The position numbers and the translations under genes are program-made. DNA of 64,000 nt, from the NCBI RefSeq assembly GCF_056746865.1, contig NZ_CM163382.1; one strand, written 5' to 3'. The notes under the pieces were generated by a model, which was not told the DNA's origin, searched no databases, and saw nothing but the letters and a program-made list of their open reading frames with translations. Position 1 is the stretch's first letter; every line of letters begins with the position of its first letter. Shown here one piece after another: positions 254 to 38,681 of this stretch.

Positions 254-469
254 AAGCGATGTTAAAAACGAAGCGGTGTCGCTGACAAGTGAAGTTGTTT
301 GATTATGATAACTTGATTGCAAAATATTATTAACAATTAAAGCAATTATGTTACAGCAAAATGGATAATATTGATGTTTTCGCGGCGAGATCACAGTTTG
401 TAAATTCTTCCCGCCGGAGTGAATGCGGTTACCTACACTCCAGATTACTGACCACTGGAGGCAGACACT

Positions 470-3832: not shown

Positions 3833-4057
3833 ATGTTTCCAGAATACCGAGATTTAATATCCCGTCTGAAAAACGAAAATCCTCGCTTTATGTCCTTGTT
3901 CGATAAACACAATAAACTTGATCATGAAATTGCCAGAAAGGAAGGTTCCGACGGTCGAGGGTACAATGCGGAAGTGGTCCGCATGAAAAAACAAAAGTTA
4001 CAGTTAAAAGATGAGATGCTCAAAATCCTGCAGCAGGAGAGCGTCAAAGAGGTGTAA
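3833..4057 (+). CDS. ydcH: DUF465 small protein YdcH
   Basis: Track ORF starts at GTG 3827; ATG at 3833 gives MFPEYRDLISRLKNENPRF..., 74 aa. Confidence 0.8.
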   Translation: MFPEYRDLISRLKNENPRFMSLFDKHNKLDHEIARKEGSDGRGYNAEVVRMKKQKLQLKDEMLKILQQESVKEV

Positions 4058-31017: not shown

Positions 31018-31635
31018 ATGATTAAGGTGTATGGCGTACCCGGATGGGGCTCTACAATCAGTGAGCTGATGCTAACACTGGCTGATATTCCTTATCAGTT
31101 CGTTGATGTCAGTGGTTTTGACCACGAGGGAACCTCACGCGAGTTATTGAAAACCCTGAACCCGTTGTGTCAGATTCCGACACTGGCGCTGGAAAATGAC
31201 GAGATTATGACGGAGACAGCGGCGATTGCATTGATGGTTCTCGATCGTCGCCCGGACCTTGCGCCACCGGTTGGGCGCGCCGAACGTCAGCAGTTTCAAC
31301 GGCTATTGGTCTGGCTGGTTGCTAATGTCTATCCAACATTCACTTTCGCCGATTACCCTGAGCGTTGGGCTCCTGACGCACCCGAACAGTTAAAGAATAA
31401 TGTTATTGAATATCGTAAATCGCTTTATATCTGGCTGAATTCACAATTGACCGCTGAACCTTATGCCTTTGGCGAGCAACTAACGCTGGTGGACTGTTAT
31501 CTCTGCACCATGCGCACATGGGGGCCGGGGCATGAATGGTTTCACGATAATGCGCAGAATATCAGCGCGATCGCTGAAGCTGTATGTCAGTTACCGAAAT
31601 TACAAGAAGTATTAAAAAGGAATGTCATTATTTAA
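31018..31635 (+). CDS. yncG: Glutathione S-transferase homolog
   Basis: 205-aa ORF with GST-like fold signature. Confidence 0.85.
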   Translation: MIKVYGVPGWGSTISELMLTLADIPYQFVDVSGFDHEGTSRELLKTLNPLCQIPTLALENDEIMTETAAIALMVLDRRPDLAPPVGRAERQQFQRLLVWLVANVYPTFTFADYPERWAPDAPEQLKNNVIEYRKSLYIWLNSQLTAEPYAFGEQLTLVDCYLCTMRTWGPGHEWFHDNAQNISAIAEAVCQLPKLQEVLKRNVII

Positions 31636-32174
31636 CAATAATGCCGGAGGTTAATGTTAATGAATCACTGGCGTAATTAACTGGATATCCATTTGTTTGC
31701 TATGAATAGTAATTAAAGTTGGTACAACTATTTATATGATTGATGTAATTTCGTTTTTTATATGAAATATCAATTTAATATAATCCGAAAATAAAACATC
31801 TTTTCGCATGTAGAGAAACATGTCGATATGATAGTGCAGTGCAGATCATGTCATCAGGGTAGGGCGGTAGCGTATTTAATCAGGGAAAGATTACGCAACG
31901 CTGCTTTTTTGTATTGAACGATTCGCATTTTATGTTTAAAAATTGCGATATTCCTTATTTCCTGAAGCTGTTTTTATTGCTTATACATGATCAAATACTC
32001 CTTACATAATTAAGGAGAACAAAATGGAACTTAATACACGCCAACAATTTGTATTACTTAAATAGACCAGTGAAGGTACGCATCAGAACATCCGGTGAAG
32101 TGATTAATATTTCGTTGAATATTTCTCCCGATTTTTGAAACCTGCTGCTGTAGAAATTCTGAACAGGAGGAATT

Positions 32175-32459
32175 ATGCCTTTAGCAGCCAAACTCACCGA
32201 CAAAGGCACCCAGCACGACGGTTATTACGAGACCGTCATCACCGCCGGGTCATCCACCGTCTTTATCGATGGTCTTCCCGCAGCCCGTCAGGGAGATCCG
32301 CTGACGCCGCATGCTAAACCGAAGCATCCCCCTCATCCCCGTAAAATCGCCAGAGGTTCTTCAACCGTCTTTATTGACGGCCTGCCCGCCGCCAGAAGCG
32401 GTGATGCTGTTGACTGCGGCGGCGTGGTTATTGGTGGCGGTACGGTAAATATAGGCTGA
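32175..32459 (+). CDS. PAAR-repeat protein (T6SS spike tip)
   Basis: 94-aa ORF with aggagg SD; duplicated GSSTVFIDGLPAAR(Q/S)GD motif. Confidence 0.75.
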   Translation: MPLAAKLTDKGTQHDGYYETVITAGSSTVFIDGLPAARQGDPLTPHAKPKHPPHPRKIARGSSTVFIDGLPAARSGDAVDCGGVVIGGGTVNIG

Positions 32460-32477: not shown

Positions 32478-34883
32478 ATGTCCTTAAAAGGTCTTCGCTT
32501 TACGCTGGAGGTTGACGGCCAGGAGCCGGACACCTTTGCAGTGGTGAATTTCAGGTTAATCCAGAACCAGTCATATCCGTTTGTGATGAGTGTGGATGTT
32601 GCCAGCGACTCTTTTATGCAGACGGCGGAGATGCTGCTGGAGAAGAAGGCGACACTGACCATCTGGCAGGGCGCAGTGGCGCAGCGTTATGTCACCGGCG
32701 TGGTGGCGGGTTTTGGCATGCAGGAGAATAACGGCTGGCAGATGCGTTATCACCTGCGTATTGAGCCGCCGTTATGGCGGTGCGGGCTGCGGCAGAACTT
32801 TCGTATCTTCCAGCAGCAGGATATCCGGACGATATCGGCCACGTTACTGAACGAGAACGGCGTCACGGAGTGGACGCCGCTGTTTTATGAGGACCATCCG
32901 GCGCGGGAGTTCTGTGTCCAGTACGGGGAGTCGGACCTGGCGTTTCTGTCCCGGCTATGGGCGGAGGAGGGTCTTTTCTTCTTTGAGCGGTTTGCGGCGG
33001 ACAGTCCGGAGCAGAAGCTGACGCTGTGCGACGATGTGGCGGGGCTGTCACAGGCGGGGGAGTTTCCGTTTAACCCGGACACATCGGCAGGAGCGGAGAC
33101 GGAGTGTGTCAGTATGTTCCGTTATGAGGCGCATGTCCGCCCGTCATCGGTGCAGAGCCAGGATTACACCTTTAAGGTGCCGGACTGGCCGGGGATGTAT
33201 GAGCAGCAGGGTGAGAACCTGAACGGACAGCTGGAGCAGTATGAGATATTTGATTATCCGGGAAGGTACAAGGATGAACAGCACGGCAAGGATTTCACGC
33301 TGTACCAGATGGAGAGCCTGCGCAGTGATGCGGAAAAGGCCACAGGGCAGAGTAATTCGCCGAAGCTGTGGCCGGGAACGCGGTTTATGCTGACGGGGCA
33401 TCCGCAGAAGATGCTGAACCGTGAATGGCAGGTGGTACAGAGCATACTGTCAGGAAACCAGCCGCAGGCGCTGCACGGCAGCCAGGGAAAGGGAACCACG
33501 CTGGGCAATCAGTTAGAGGTGATACCGGCGGACCGGACGTGGCGTCCACGGCTGCAAAACAAACCGAAGGTGGACGGGCCACAGAGCGCCATTGTCACCG
33601 GTCCTGCGGGAGAGGAAATCTTCTGCGACGAACACGGACGTGTGCGAGTGCAGTTTCACTGGGACAGGTATAACCCGGCAACGGAGGCGAGTTCATGCTG
33701 GGTGAGGGTGTCGCAGGCGTGGGCGGGGCCGGGGTTCGGTAACCTGGCGATACCACGGGTGGGTCAGGAGGTGATAGTGGACTTCCTGAACGGCGACCCG
33801 GACCAGCCGATAATCATGGGGCGGACGTACCATGAGGACAACCGTTCGCCGGGCGACCTGCCGGGAACGAAGACGCAGATGACCATCCGGTCAAAAACCT
33901 ATAAAGGAAGCGGATTTAACGAGCTGCGGTTTGAAGACGCCACCAGTAATGAGCAGGTGTATATCCATGCCCAGAAGAACATGGATACGGAGGTGCTCAA
34001 CGACCGGACAACGGATGTGAAACATGACCATACGGAAACCATCGGGAACGACCAGAAGATAACGGTGGTGAAGGGGCAGACGGTTCAGGTCGGGACCAGA
34101 AAAGAAGGGGGCCACGACCAGAGTATCACGGTGGCGAACGACCGGTGCATCACGGTACGTAATGACCAGACGCTGCAGGTGACGAATGACCGGACGGTGA
34201 GCGTGAGTAATGATGACGGCCTGTACGTCAGAAATGACCGTAAAGTGACGGTGGAAGGGAAGCAGGAGCATAAGACGACGGGGAACCATATCAGTCTGGT
34301 GGAGGGAAAGCACAGCCTGGTGGTGAAGGGGGACCTGGCGAGGAAGGTGAGTGGCGCGCTGGGGATAAAGGTGGACGGGGATATCGTGCTGGAGAGCAGC
34401 AGCCGGATAAGCCTGAAGGTGAGTGGCTCGTTTGTGGTCATCCATTCAGGGGGCGTGGACATCGTCGGGCCGAAAATCAATCTCAATAGCGGCGGTAGTC
34501 CGGGGACGCCGGTGCCGGCGCTGCAACCGGCGGTGCTGAAGACACTGGGGGATGAGAAGAGTGGTGATGGCAGTGATTCCGGAGAAGAAAATGAAGACTC
34601 TGGAGGGAACTGCGTGACCGGAAGTGGTGGTGATGATCGAGGTGACGATGAGGATGAACCTGAAAAATATACTCTCCAGTTCCATTTTACAGACGATGAC
34701 GGGATACCGTATTCAGAAACCCGCTACATTGCCTTCTTTGAGGATGGCACGCAGACCCGCGGAGAAACGGATGAAGAGGGGTATACAGAGCGTTTTTTTG
34801 TATCTAGCAAACATGAAATTAAAGTGAAGTTGTTATTTGCGAATGATGATTTTCTCTCAATGGAAGGACACTATGGACGATAA
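32478..34883 (+). CDS. vgrG: VgrG (type VI secretion spike protein) with C-terminal extension
   Basis: 801-aa ORF: gp27/gp5-like N-terminal part, beta-helix repeats (ITVANDRCITVRNDQTLQVTNDRTVSVSNDDGLYVRNDRKVTV), acidic Gly/Asp/Glu linker, then a ~70-aa C-terminal domain. Confidence 0.9.
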   Translation: MSLKGLRFTLEVDGQEPDTFAVVNFRLIQNQSYPFVMSVDVASDSFMQTAEMLLEKKATLTIWQGAVAQRYVTGVVAGFGMQENNGWQMRYHLRIEPPLWRCGLRQNFRIFQQQDIRTISATLLNENGVTEWTPLFYEDHPAREFCVQYGESDLAFLSRLWAEEGLFFFERFAADSPEQKLTLCDDVAGLSQAGEFPFNPDTSAGAETECVSMFRYEAHVRPSSVQSQDYTFKVPDWPGMYEQQGENLNGQLEQYEIFDYPGRYKDEQHGKDFTLYQMESLRSDAEKATGQSNSPKLWPGTRFMLTGHPQKMLNREWQVVQSILSGNQPQALHGSQGKGTTLGNQLEVIPADRTWRPRLQNKPKVDGPQSAIVTGPAGEEIFCDEHGRVRVQFHWDRYNPATEASSCWVRVSQAWAGPGFGNLAIPRVGQEVIVDFLNGDPDQPIIMGRTYHEDNRSPGDLPGTKTQMTIRSKTYKGSGFNELRFEDATSNEQVYIHAQKNMDTEVLNDRTTDVKHDHTETIGNDQKITVVKGQTVQVGTRKEGGHDQSITVANDRCITVRNDQTLQVTNDRTVSVSNDDGLYVRNDRKVTVEGKQEHKTTGNHISLVEGKHSLVVKGDLARKVSGALGIKVDGDIVLESSSRISLKVSGSFVVIHSGGVDIVGPKINLNSGGSPGTPVPALQPAVLKTLGDEKSGDGSDSGEENEDSGGNCVTGSGGDDRGDDEDEPEKYTLQFHFTDDDGIPYSETRYIAFFEDGTQTRGETDEEGYTERFFVSSKHEIKVKLLFANDDFLSMEGHYGR

Positions 34884-35664
34884 TAATCAAACTTCTGGAC
34901 AACCAAAGCCAGAGCCAGAAGAATGTGTGAAAGAGCAAAAAATAACTGATCATTTTAAAATAATGATTGATAAGGCTCGTAAGGCACAAAAGTTGGTTTT
35001 GATAAAAAGAGCAGATGATCTTTTGAGATGGGGAGCACAGGAGGAATATGATTTCAGTAAGATCTTTGGTGTTAAAGGAAATAAGGAGGTTAATATAAGA
35101 AAATATGGACATAATACAGGTAGGCGCATGAATGCTAGATTTCTTATGATGGATGGTGTGAGAAGATTAATGATTATAGCTAATGATTTAACAATGAGCA
35201 GTTTTATAAATTATACAGGTTGTAATGAATTTGCAGCATTCGTCAGCCCAAGTAAGGATATGCCCTATATAATTAACATAGGCGCAAAATTTGAGTATAG
35301 AGATGGCAAAAAAAATCCAGTAACGGGAAAGGATTCTCATGTTGCTACTTTATGTCATGAAATGTCTCATATTCAGTGGTATTATGGGGATAATAAAAAA
35401 GGTGGTATGTGGTCACAGGATTATACAACTACTGATAAATATTCAACGTGCAAAGAGGATGAAGTTTCATATGACGAACATATCCGTATTGCAACTAAAC
35501 TGATCTCTAAACAAAAAGATCAAATATTCGAGAATGCATATAACATAGAAAGATATTTTGAAATAAGATTAATTGAAAGTGAGATAGACTCGATTAATGA
35601 TGAAATATTAAGCAATTCAGTTAAGAAAAAAATAGCGGAATTAGAAAAAGCACTTCTCCATTAA
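34873..35664 (+). CDS. Candidate VgrG cargo effector with HExxH (zincin-like) motif
   Basis: ATG overlaps the vgrG stop (ATGGACGATAA); 263 aa; HEMSH at nt 35356-35370; GC content drops sharply at the vgrG stop. Confidence 0.55.
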   Translation: MDDNNQTSGQPKPEPEECVKEQKITDHFKIMIDKARKAQKLVLIKRADDLLRWGAQEEYDFSKIFGVKGNKEVNIRKYGHNTGRRMNARFLMMDGVRRLMIIANDLTMSSFINYTGCNEFAAFVSPSKDMPYIINIGAKFEYRDGKKNPVTGKDSHVATLCHEMSHIQWYYGDNKKGGMWSQDYTTTDKYSTCKEDEVSYDEHIRIATKLISKQKDQIFENAYNIERYFEIRLIESEIDSINDEILSNSVKKKIAELEKALLH

Positions 35665-35716
35665 CTAATAAGTCGAGAAATATATTAATGCTGCAAGCTA
35701 TAAAAAAATCATAATA

Positions 35717-36346
35717 ATGACAATCGTAAATATTATATTTTTCTATTCCTTTCAATCGACTGCGGATGAAATGGTTTTAATAAAAAAATACGGGTTTGGG
35801 CTTGAGAGAGATATCAAAGGAAGGCCATTAATTTATCCTATCGAAAATTATGATGAGTGTAAGAAAAAATGCAATCATATGAATTATATAGCGGATGTCA
35901 ATGCTCAATTAGCTATGAGTAAAAAAAACAACAGGATTTTTGCTAACATAACCTTTACTAACAATAGCTCTACCACGTATTTTTTTTCTAAATATTACCT
36001 ACCTATGAAAGTAAAAGATGGAAAAGGAGATGAATATGATGCGATATGCAAAAAACCATTCAGAATCAACTCTGGGAATATCACGTTGGACTACTTAGGT
36101 GGTTCATGTCCTTTTGAAATTAATACGAATCCTGAACGGTGGAATACTATTAAACCAGGTCGTAGTTTTTTGTTGAGTATAACCTTAAATGATATGTATG
36201 CCTTTATACCAGGAGATAATTATTATTTTATAAAATCATCTGGCTATAAATTTGTTAATGACAAGTGGTTTACACTCAAATCAATCAATAATATTTTTCT
36301 TTATTTTTTAAATTTAAAAATTAATTGTGCTGATGATTTTTTTTGA
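35717..36346 (+). CDS. Hypothetical protein, candidate immunity partner (ends at a T8 tract)
   Basis: 209-aa AT-rich ORF directly downstream of the effector candidate; stop lies in a T8 homopolymer; downstream ORF 36327-36509 is in the +1 frame. Confidence 0.4.
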   Translation: MTIVNIIFFYSFQSTADEMVLIKKYGFGLERDIKGRPLIYPIENYDECKKKCNHMNYIADVNAQLAMSKKNNRIFANITFTNNSSTTYFFSKYYLPMKVKDGKGDEYDAICKKPFRINSGNITLDYLGGSCPFEINTNPERWNTIKPGRSFLLSITLNDMYAFIPGDNYYFIKSSGYKFVNDKWFTLKSINNIFLYFLNLKINCADDFF

Positions 36347-36528
36347 TATTAATAATTTTACTACATGTGATAATTTGTTATTAGATGAAAAAAAATACTT
36401 TTTTATTAATCAGTTATGGGCAATTGAGGATGAAAAAAATTCTATTTACGTCACCCCTGATGAAATTTCTATAAGTATAGACGGCGATAACTTAAAGTTG
36501 CCATATTAGGAATCTGTGAAAGAACAAG

Positions 36529-37017
36529 GTGCGCCGCTTTTTTGTACTAAATAATTCGCATTTTAGTCACGGCAGAGAAGAAATCCATCTTCATATTGTT
36601 TGCGATGTCCCTGATGAACTTATTGATTTCACGTTTGAATGGAAAGGTCAGAAGAAATTATGCGTGGCAGTCTCCTTTTGGTCAATAATAGCAGAACAAA
36701 AGAAAGAGCCAGAAATGACGGTCAGATATTATATCAGTTCTGCTGATTTAACCGCAAAAAAGTTCGCCACAGCGATACGAAATCACTGGCACGTGGAGAA
36801 TAAGCTGCACTGGCGTCTGGACGTGGTAATGAACGAAGACGACTGCAAAATAAGAAGAGGAAACGCCGCAGAATTATTTTCAGGGATACGGCACATCGCT
36901 ATTAATATTTTAACGAATGATAAGGTATTCAAGGCAGGGTTAAGACGCAAGATGCGAAAAGCAGCTATGGACAGAGACTACCTCGCGTCAGTCCTTGCGG
37001 GGAGCGGGCTTTCGTAA
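36529..37017 (+). pseudogene. H-repeat-associated (ISAs1-family transposase) 3' remnant
   Basis: Translation ...[44 protein letters not shown]...[22 protein letters not shown] resembles the C-terminus of H-rpt proteins; no N-terminal half present. Confidence 0.7.
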
Positions 37018-37125
37018 TCTTGCCCTGGCGATCGAATAGCGCAGATGACGGTGCTCTAAATTTGAATCTAATAAGCCGGTGTTATTTTTCATCCACTATT
37101 AAAATCTTGACACAACGAGGCAACA

Positions 37126-37686
37126 ATGAAAAAAAGCAAAAAAATTAAAACAATGAACCATCAAAATAATAGCGGGATACAAAATCAACCAGACTATCAC
37201 ATCGAAATAGAAAGAAAAAATATGGTAAGATTGCTTGATGAACGTATTGATAAAGTTTACGGTTCATTGCTAGGACCAATGAAAAAGAAAAATATAGATA
37301 AAATACGTCATTTTACACTTGATGTAATGGTGTTTATTCTTGACACGAACCCTCGTGTTTGTAATAAATTATCCAGGGAAATAATATCTTTAGCGCAAAA
37401 TACCTTCATTGAAAAAAACGTTAATTTTTCAACTTTTAATAATGAACAGCATAGAATAAGGGAGTATATGAATGAAGGTGGTGGAATACGATGGTTTACA
37501 TGGGATAACCCCGAGATATCTTTTGTTCGTGCATCTTTTGGCCTTTTTGTCAAAATGGAAACAAAAGGTGATCATGAACATACACTAAGTGACACATTTC
37601 TTCAGATTGTTGAGTGTGTTAATTTAAATATAGGACTTATTGCAAAAGATGAACTGGTAAAAATCATCAATAAACACTTTATGTAA
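37126..37686 (+). CDS. Hypothetical protein (AT-rich orphan ORF)
   Basis: 186-aa ORF, ATG with acgagg SD, low GC; no motif recognised. Confidence 0.45.
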   Translation: MKKSKKIKTMNHQNNSGIQNQPDYHIEIERKNMVRLLDERIDKVYGSLLGPMKKKNIDKIRHFTLDVMVFILDTNPRVCNKLSREIISLAQNTFIEKNVNFSTFNNEQHRIREYMNEGGGIRWFTWDNPEISFVRASFGLFVKMETKGDHEHTLSDTFLQIVECVNLNIGLIAKDELVKIINKHFM

Positions 37687-38045: not shown

Positions 38046-38681
38046 ATGAATAAAGGTAATAGATTACAACAGTTAGAAGATGCGTGTCGTGATATTATTA
38101 AAATTAACATGTGGTATGAACTCCCCGATTATGTATTTTTTTCAATATCTGACACCATCGATGGGACGAGTGATGAATTCGCAATAAATGTGTATAAAAA
38201 TATCGATAAAAGTCTTCTTGAAATATTATTGCATCCATCTGTTTTACTGTCAGTTGTTGAGTCCTTACAAAGTAATACTATAGCTGAGTATATCGTGAAA
38301 TTGTCTGAAATAGAGATGAATTATGACGACTTGCTAATATCGGATGTTAAATCATGTCTTTTTATCAACTATGGATTCAATAACAGTGAATCGGTTGCGC
38401 TATTTAATAAGATTTACCGCGAATTAAAAGATATTGTAAAATCATCAAGAGTACATATAGATCATGAGAAAGATATTTTTGATGGCCTTAATCAAATCTT
38501 GGCTTTTTCCGATAATAATAAACATGAGTATTTTTTATATATAAAGGCATATTGGCTCAGTTTATACTTTTGTGAAATTTCACAGAACGTGAGAGAAAGA
38601 GATAAGTTGTCATTTTATTATAATGAATTTTCTGTCCGATTTCCTAATGTTGTCCTATATCCGTCATGCTACAAATTGTAA
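38046..38681 (+). CDS. Hypothetical protein (AT-rich orphan ORF)
   Basis: 211-aa ORF, ATG start, low GC; no motif recognised. Confidence 0.45.
   Translation: MNKGNRLQQLEDACRDIIKINMWYELPDYVFFSISDTIDGTSDEFAINVYKNIDKSLLEILLHPSVLLSVVESLQSNTIAEYIVKLSEIEMNYDDLLISDVKSCLFINYGFNNSESVALFNKIYRELKDIVKSSRVHIDHEKDIFDGLNQILAFSDNNKHEYFLYIKAYWLSLYFCEISQNVRERDKLSFYYNEFSVRFPNVVLYPSCYKL

Follow-up and report, generated by a model that had tools for sequence, protein, structure and literature searches.

The 539-bp spacer between yncG and the PAAR gene is, with a probability of about 0.8 in our estimate, the promoter and leader of an orphan T6SS spike/effector operon, in which initiation would be silenced by H-NS and elongation would depend on RfaH and an ops site, while the two small ORFs in the spacer would be incidental. 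This type of leader has already been described for the same locus in CFT073, and the one studied here is an ordinary H-NS-silenced, RfaH/ops-dependent leader with an IS scar. The present analysis adds that the ops core is the sole sequence in common with the K-12 rhsE leader (the match to the cusS-vgrG leader reaches slightly further), that an ISEc1 scar accounts for the SD-led mini-ORF, and that ISAs1-family ends recur right after ops. Such a leader would decide the expression of the orphan T6SS spike/effector island, and the recognition of ops turns a seemingly featureless AT-rich spacer into a defined and testable control point. Two non-genes are also kept from small-protein annotation; what is gained is a correct annotation, not a discovery.

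Gene context and composition of the spacer

The window, which is the whole stretch of 64,000 nucleotides analysed, carries yncG (a product of the GST family, Pfam GST_N_2/3) with its ORF ending at 31635, and a PAAR gene with its ATG at 32175. The features of the spacer and of the genes that follow are listed below.

31636..32174, + strand: yncG-PAAR spacer, the presumed 5′ leader/promoter region of the PAAR-vgrG operon
32036..32174, + strand: PAAR-proximal leader, 139 bp, confined to the same 687 genomes as the full spacer
32165-32170, + strand: SD of the PAAR gene, AGGAGG, read from the sequence
32175..32459, + strand: PAAR gene, 94 aa, first in the operon (Pfam PAAR_motif, E 5e-21)
32478..34883, + strand: vgrG, 801 aa (Pfam Phage_GPD, E 3e-75; Gp5_trimer_C; Phage_base_V)
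34837..35664, + strand: AT-rich gene of a putative M35-like metallopeptidase effector with a HEMSH motif (Pfam Aspzincin_M35, E 0.002, below cutoff)
about 36514..37027, + strand: second derivative of ISEc1, internally deleted for IS positions 53-828, with a DDE_Tnp_1 fragment at 36529-37017

A first, sequence-only reading of this DNA had called the spacer strongly AT-rich, and the composition bears this out. The GC content is 0.328 over the 539 bp and 0.279 in the segment 31636-31836, compared with 0.484 for the whole window and about 0.57 for PAAR and vgrG; values of 0.28-0.33 against 0.48 fit the AT-richness expected of an H-NS-silenced promoter region. Behind vgrG the GC content is again low, at 0.30 for 34884-36513. 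The true start of the effector gene is probably downstream of the listed TTG; its counterparts in CFT073 and O145 are annotated as peptidase M35, and NCBIfam gave no matches on the cargo ORFs. The second ISEc1 derivative forms the distal end of the PAAR-vgrG-effector module.

Among 5426 complete E. coli genomes, 686-687 carry the spacer at full length. Positions 31500-32300 of the window share 96.1% identity with CFT073 (L006) and 97.6% with O145 RM12367 (L003). The leader is pieced together from DNA next to yncG, the 38-nt core, the scar of an IS, and 139 bp that are specific to this haplotype.

Several other kinds of control element were searched for in the leader. Within the spacer, the terminator scan reported no intrinsic terminator for the + strand. 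Folding of 400 nt of the leader gave a z of -2.3, driven mostly by the IS hairpin and local stems, and no riboswitch or attenuator could be recognised in this fold. The best match in the leader to a Fur box, as in sci1-type regulation, was 13/19, a score common in shuffles. No Rfam family in or around the spacer reached its gathering score, and the sole suggestive match was to JUMPstart, as described below.

An ops site within a JUMPstart-like core

An ops 12-mer lies 228 nt downstream of the stop codon of yncG and 312 nt upstream of the start codon of PAAR; it is on the + strand, which is the non-template strand and the same strand as PAAR-vgrG.

31863..31874, + strand: ops element GGCGGTAGCGTA, 11/12 to the consensus GGCGGTAGCGTG; predicted RfaH loading/pause site
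31837..31874, + strand: JUMPstart-like 38-nt core (CAGTGCA, 18 nt, GGGCGGTAGCGTA), vgrG/rhs-type variant
31828..31917, + strand: 29-codon ORF MIVQCRSCHQGRAVAYLIRERLRNAAFLY (MIVQ...FLY), which overlies the ops core and has no SD upstream

Tested against the ops consensus GGCGGTAGnnTG, the 12-mer matches at 11 of 12 positions and the core GGCGGTAG is intact; position 12 is A here and G in the consensus. The kps ops GGCGGTAGCATA also has A at position 12 and was bound by RfaH in wild-type CFT073 according to Hustmyer et al. (2022, PMC9765446), thus an A at this position is tolerated. The site lies in an untranslated leader, in that the only ORF overlying it is the 29-codon frame without SD. The chance expectation per window is 0.39 for the looser pattern GGCGGTAGNNT and, by our own arithmetic, about 0.008 for the full 12-mer, and the match in the spacer exceeds chance. 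Among five orthologous leaders of 95-100% identity the 12-mer is invariant, and the 201 bp upstream of it have 7% variable columns; at such low divergence, selection on ops or on the small ORFs can be judged only poorly.

In a permissive scan, Rfam RF01707 matched 31837-31874 with 19.7 bits (E 0.1-0.36), below the gathering score of 35, while the canonical K-12 rfb and waaQ elements scored 60 and 55.2 bits. Although the match extends over the whole model, alignment is confined to the two outer blocks. These are a 5′ block CAGUGCA and a 3′ block GGGCGGUAGCGUA, corresponding to CAGYGCA and GGGCGGUAGCGUG; they are kept at the spacing of the model, with high posterior probability for both across the 18 intervening nt. 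The canonical JUMPstart stem-loop (cUGGuAGCUG..UAAgCCAg) is absent, with cmscan skipping the 18 central positions, and the 38-mer folds with -3.3 kcal/mol (z +1.3), which amounts to no stable structure. We take the core at 31837-31874 to be an ops/JUMPstart-like RfaH loading site, one that the sequence-only reading had overlooked.

Membership in the Rfam JUMPstart family was considered separately and rejected because 19.7 bits is below 35 and the central stem-loop is missing. The corresponding K-12 region, of which 10 kb were searched, gave no Rfam matches at E ≤ 1.

The core at other loci and the search for yncH

In K-12, yncG is followed by a different segment of about 700 bp, then by the same ops core and then by the rhsE pseudogene. 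Only the 37-38-nt core is common to this leader and the spacer (94.6% over 37 nt), and the flanks are unrelated on both sides. A core with the ops variant GAGCGGTAGCATA sits 335 nt upstream of the vgrG adjoining cusS in many strains, and about 50 nt around the core match there at 83%. Of the 5426 complete E. coli genomes, 4523 carry the core at least once, and the median number of places is 2 per genome. The K-12 rhsB and rhsC leaders carry no ops.

A cross-species scan with the exact pattern and one genome per species gave five matches: one in Superficieibacter electus, three in a genome labelled Brenneria sp. 4F2, and one in E. coli-like DNA within a Citrobacter MAG. The Superficieibacter and Brenneria copies precede AT-rich arrays of small, mostly unannotatable ORFs, with one ComJ-family match. 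The aligned core has the consensus GTGCAGAT...TATCAGGGnnG(G/A)GCGGTAGC(G/A)TAT, also written GTGCAGAT...TATCAGGGnnGGGCGGTAGCrTAT. These comparisons suggest that the 38-nt core is the conserved unit of the leader, kept at several independent vgrG/rhs loci amid unrelated flanks. The cross-species matches are in keeping with this, though weakly. A literature search for ops with rhsE or yncH, or for JUMPstart with H-repeat/ISAs1, found nothing relevant.

The K-12 gene yncH had not been identified in the sequence-only reading, and an alignment was named there that might reveal the spacer as yncH in another frame. When K-12 YncH was compared with all 64 kb in any frame by tblastn, no match was found at E ≤ 10. 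In a blastn search of the K-12 yncG-rhsE spacer against the window, the present spacer was matched only at 37 nt (31839-31875), and the three other matches in the window were of 15-22 nt with E 0.19-0.66. By both searches yncH is absent from the whole window, and the other-frame possibility is ruled out, since the alignment found only the 37-nt ops core.

An ISEc1 scar beneath the SD-led small ORF

The sequence that follows ops is derived from an insertion sequence, and the second small ORF arises within it.

31881..32035, + strand: ISEc1 left-end relic (ISAs1 family, H-repeat), comprising inverted repeat, 5′UTR, SD and 11-12 nt from the start of the transposase gene
31998..32017, + strand: 7-bp hairpin CUCCUUA/UAAGGAG from the ISEc1 5′UTR, the 3′ arm of which is the SD of the 13-codon ORF
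32024..32065, + strand: 13-codon ORF MELNTRQQFVLLK, a transposase start (MEL...) fused to unrelated sequence

Positions 26-155 of an intact 1291-bp ISEc1 (L007 4976-6266) match 31906-32034 with 94.6% identity over 130 nt (E 6e-53), and the homology of 31881-32035 to ISEc1 exceeds chance. The inverted repeat, CAGGGAAAGAT..., starts at 31881, so that both the inverted repeat and the 5′UTR of ISEc1 are represented. The upstream region of K-12 ydcC matches at 93.8%, with the ydcC ATG aligned to 32024. By megablast, 31876/31881-32034 matches ISAs1/ISEc1 transposase loci (ydcC, ybfD) in thousands of genomes. An intact DDE transposase and the right inverted repeat of ISEc1 are absent, and the homology ends 11 nt into the gene, at 32034-32035.

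The 13-codon ORF with a strong SD, to which the sequence-only reading had drawn attention, is present, with its ATG at 32024 and the SD AAGGAGA at 32012-32018, at a spacing of 5 nt. Intact ISEc1 copies read ATGGAACTTAAAAAATTGATG (MELKKLMEH) from this point, and the window departs from them after ATGGAACTTAA, that is, after 11 coding bases. Because the SD and ATG are homologous with the ISEc1 transposase start, they are the transposase's own signals fused to unrelated DNA. The SD hairpin has a folding energy of -8 kcal/mol (z -3.8), a stability that none of 200 shuffles reached, and its sequence is identical in intact ISEc1 copies. It was flagged as a stem by the promoter and terminator scan as well. 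The SD of the 13-codon ORF is thus predicted by folding to be sequestered in a conserved hairpin. By analogy with other insertion sequences, this hairpin probably limits translation of the transposase from read-through transcripts.

The 29-codon ORF noted earlier is likewise present, at 31828-31917. The ops 12-mer lies inside it and is translated as residues QGRAVAY. Eight ORFs of at least 20 aa overlap the spacer, so the occurrence of this one is not beyond chance. In the five leaders of 95-100% identity it shows three single-base amino-acid changes (V3A, H9Y and A25T), a further one by two adjacent bases (R12W) and one synonymous change, and its stop codon is lost in one leader of the five (L013). 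The 13-codon ORF shows E2K and T5S in the same leaders, both amino-acid changing. Apart from the stop loss in L013, both small ORFs are open in 5/5 leaders.

One or both small ORFs might still be a regulatory leader peptide that controls PAAR-vgrG by attenuation or protection from Rho. The 13-codon ORF would be suited to this by its strong SD at a 5-nt spacing from ATG, by being open in all five orthologues, and by its place in a long stretch of untranslated leader, in which translation might keep Rho off. We regard this as highly improbable, however, because its SD and ATG come from the ISEc1 transposase gene, everything past codon 4 is encoded by unrelated DNA of the junction, its SD is buried in the hairpin described above and all its substitutions alter the peptide. 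The 29-codon ORF, for its part, has no SD and has accumulated four amino-acid changes and a stop loss against one synonymous change. The K-12 rhsE and cusS-vgrG leaders carry the ops core but neither ORF, no terminator/antiterminator pair coupled to either ORF was found, and RefSeq annotates no CDS between yncG and PAAR in the 5 genomes compared.

The sequence-only reading had left it open whether the small ORFs are spurious or regulatory peptides; the former is upheld and the latter is not, one being a transposase start of ISEc1 and the other a chance frame over ops without SD. The 29-codon ORF is most likely spurious, a chance frame across the ops core, and most likely neither ORF is a functional peptide, both being by-products rather than genes.

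ISAs1-family ends next to ops

The left end of an ISAs1-family element begins 6 nt after ops here, and in another haplotype the left end of a different IS begins 2 nt after ops. A third ISEc1 copy elsewhere lies 16 nt after GACGGTAGCGTAT. About 6 independent ISEc1 left ends were examined, a small sample, and GGTAGCGTAT adjoined 2 of them; it also adjoined one further element of the ISAs1 family. The 38-nt vgrG/rhs-type JUMPstart variant might be a portable junction module, with the site 3′ of ops as a preferred landing place of ISAs1-family elements, a suggestion that we consider quite unlikely. If it were true, an IS placed 3′ of ops would ride on RfaH-modified, anti-terminated transcription; the U-tract hairpin and translatable mini-ORF of the scar could make expression of the island strictly RfaH-dependent; and the idea could partly explain why H-repeats recur beside Rhs and vgrG islands in these loci.

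The CFT073 orthologue and the proposed control of the operon

In CFT073 the identical 12-mer occupies L006 position 2754, corresponding to 1715753 in genome coordinates. By Hustmyer et al. (2022, PMC9765446), an ops GGCGGTAGCGTA is listed at 1715753-1715764, -313 from c1882; this c1882 is a 285-bp PAAR gene that comes after ansP and yncG fragments. The same source reports an RfaH ChIP signal over c1882-c1889 in a delta-hns delta-stpA strain that is gone in delta-rfaH. Reported H-NS IP/input values are 23.2 on c1880 (H-NS-bound; the gene directly upstream), 7.05 on c1882 and 15-42 on c1884-c1886, and a sigma70 peak upstream of c1882 appears solely in delta-hns delta-stpA. Its authors term c1882-c1889 a cryptic RfaH-regulated locus with a promoter silenced by H-NS-StpA (PMC9765446). 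The earlier suggestion that the spacer is an H-NS-silenced promoter of acquired DNA gains support from this orthologue (96%), where H-NS is bound and the sigma70 peak is seen only without H-NS/StpA.

In wild-type CFT073 in rich medium, RNAP on c1882 is at background and RfaH is absent, and RfaH binding at the locus is seen only with H-NS and StpA deleted (PMC9765446). For most of the time the PAAR-vgrG locus may be inactive. This state of wild-type CFT073 is also in keeping with the spacer being inert, H-NS-coated junction DNA from an IS-mediated rearrangement, with ops as a fossil without present function. The patchwork make-up of the leader and the retention of the core before a dead rhsE pseudogene in K-12 fit such a reading as well. 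We nevertheless hold it to be very unlikely. In the absence of H-NS/StpA, RfaH loads and travels over c1882-c1889 in an rfaH-dependent manner; several independent vgrG/rhs loci have retained the core between wholly different flanks; and of the 42 ops-like sites reported for CFT073, only 8 are in leaders, and those 8, and only those, bind RfaH (PMC9765446).

Two candidate promoters upstream of ops were obtained from a consensus scan.

31757..31784, + strand: candidate sigma70 promoter P1, TTTATA-16-TATAAT, 10/12
31803..31832, + strand: candidate sigma70 promoter P2, TTCGCA-18-TATGAT, 9/12

The implied start of P1, at about 31791, would place ops near +72, and the P1 hexamers and P2 are unchanged in the 5 orthologues. 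Promoter-like sites in the spacer are not above chance (4 found versus 3.7 expected), and P1 and P2 as promoters are inferred from the sequence only.

The following course of events is proposed for the RfaH/ops-dependent leader. Initiation would occur in the 28%-GC segment 31636-31836, upstream of ops, and would normally be silenced by H-NS/StpA, as was shown in the CFT073 orthologue. RNAP that escapes this silencing would transcribe GGCGGTAGCGTA at 31863-31874 and pause, and the non-template ops DNA would recruit RfaH in place of NusG, in line with the established mode of action of RfaH. RfaH-modified polymerase resists pausing, Rho and H-NS filaments. By the RfaH counter-silencing model, it would then cross the remaining untranslated leader of about 300 nt, IS scar included, and continue through the 30%-GC cargo past vgrG. 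PAAR would be translated from its own SD, AGGAGG at 32165-32170, and neither small ORF would be needed for this mechanism.

The leader might instead mainly yield a short RirA-like RNA that contains ops, extends from around 31791 as far as the U-tract (31905-31910), and titrates or modulates RfaH. The waaQ leader gives rise to a 73-nt sRNA with JUMPstart and ops that ends shortly past ops. In the present leader, pairing is possible between GGUAGCGU of ops and ACGCUGC from the IS, behind which comes U6 (31905-31910). However, the structure formed by ops and IS sequence is a branched hairpin of about 41 nt rather than a canonical terminator, is not unusually stable (z -1.2 to -1.5), and was not reported by the terminator scan. 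The U-tract is derived from the IS and is absent from the other ops-bearing vgrG/rhs leaders examined, and the reported RfaH signal in CFT073 runs far downstream (PMC9765446). We consider a RirA-like RNA very unlikely and retain the reading of the spacer as an H-NS-silenced, RfaH/ops-dependent leader.

Comparison with known systems

The closest known system is c1882-c1889 of CFT073. It is the same locus (ansP-yncG-PAAR-vgrG), with a spacer 96% identical, an identical ops 12-mer, an ops-PAAR distance of 313 nt compared with 312 nt here, and the same ISEc1 scar. It differs in that yncG is frameshifted and two tandem PAAR-vgrG modules are present, whereas in the window yncG is intact and a single module follows it. 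Searches of the paper's text and supplements (PMC9765446) found no discussion of the IS scar, of the small ORFs or of the JUMPstart-like upstream half.

The K-12 position downstream of yncG where yncH (DUF5445, b1455) is found corresponds to the spacer, but no DNA or protein similarity to yncH exists anywhere in the window. With ISEc1 and the H-repeats of K-12 (ydcC, ybfD, yhhI), the spacer shares the inverted repeat, 5′UTR, SD hairpin and start codon at 94% identity. Only the first ~155 of 1291 bp are left here, with no transposase and no right end, and this is therefore a scar and not an element.

Like the canonical rfb, waaQ (rfaQ), hly and kps operons, the locus has ops on the non-template strand of a long leader, and a long, AT-rich, horizontally acquired envelope operon follows the leader in canonical JUMPstart operons as it does here. 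The 5′ CAGYGCA and 3′ GGGCGGUAGCGU blocks also stand at the spacing of the model. In contrast, the central GGUAGCUG...CC stem-loop is replaced here by unrelated sequence (19.7 versus 55-60 bits), and position 12 is A instead of G. The distance from ops to the first gene is 312 nt, compared with 71 nt (wzx) and 190 nt (wza) in CFT073.

RfaH/ops control of the sci1 T6SS core cluster of EAEC was established by mutagenesis (Taillefer, Desjardins, Cascales; bioRxiv 10.1101/2025.02.08.637259). The ops1 and ops2 sites of sci1 resemble the present one in being RfaH/ops anti-termination sites on E. coli T6SS genes. They are intergenic within the core cluster (hcp-clpV, accessory genes), whereas the site described here belongs to the 5′ leader preceding an orphan island of PAAR, vgrG and effector genes that is not part of the core cluster.

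ISAs1-family elements beside ops and at the module borders

Left ends of ISAs1-family elements were found repeatedly directly 3′ of ops-like sequence (window 31863-31890; comparison loci L002, 4260-4290, and L007, 4940-4990). In the window, 6 nt separate ops, the 12-nt RfaH loading site, from the start of the ISEc1 relic. A full-length ISAs1-family element different from ISEc1 begins 2 nt 3′ of the same ops in strain RIVM_C037884, and in strain C10 an intact ISEc1 begins 16 nt 3′ of GACGGTAGCGTAT, within a PAAR/Rhs-type gene. The ops-like motif was absent at four other ISEc1 left ends inspected. From the sequences compared, the arrangement could reflect target preference or coincidence. The ISEc1 5′UTR carries a conserved 7-bp hairpin (CUCCUUA/UAAGGAG, window 31998-32017; -8 kcal/mol, z -3.8), which in the predicted fold buries the transposase Shine-Dalgarno sequence and may be a brake on transposase translation from read-through transcripts.

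Three further features of the window were located:
34837-35664, AT-rich putative effector ORF overlapping the vgrG end, with a HEMSH motif
36514-37027, second ISEc1 derivative, internally deleted for IS positions 53-828, whose left repeat has diverged
55844-55854, minus strand, second ops-like motif GGCGGTAGGTT, inside a 293-aa ORF (55707-56588, minus strand)

The second ISEc1 derivative forms the distal end of the PAAR-vgrG-effector module, so that the module lies between two ISEc1 remnants in direct orientation. In strain EC6868, the genome closest to the window, IS1B was inserted between the yncG end and the leader (locus L014, 1549-2246), showing that IS traffic at this junction is ongoing. 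The ORF at 34837-35664 matched Aspzincin_M35 weakly, with an E of 0.002 that falls short of the cutoff, and is likely a T6SS effector because its counterparts are annotated as peptidase M35. The ORFs further downstream, at 35717-36346, 37126-37686, and 38046-38681, had no Pfam matches above cutoff and no NCBIfam matches. The second ops-like motif is probably fortuitous, since intragenic ops-like sites in CFT073 showed no RfaH binding (PMC9765446).

The ops core in other genomes

Superficieibacter electus also contains the vgrG-type JUMPstart variant, and a genome labelled Brenneria sp. 4F2 has three copies of it. These lie at:
L015, ~3850-3915, minus strand
L016, 2850-2910
L017, 281-341
L018, ~270-300, minus strand

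Where downstream sequence was available, AT-rich small-ORF arrays lay 3′ of the variant, with one ComJ-family match and otherwise no family assignment; these are possibly orphan effector/immunity cassettes.

K-12 also retains this same ops core:
L001 4578-4614 (MG1655 1527577-1527613), ops core GGCGGTAGCGTA, with the rhsE pseudogene ~275 bp downstream

No paper tying rhsE or yncH to RfaH was found in the literature. The K-12 rhsE leader containing this core has a homologue in other strains, the cusS-vgrG leader.
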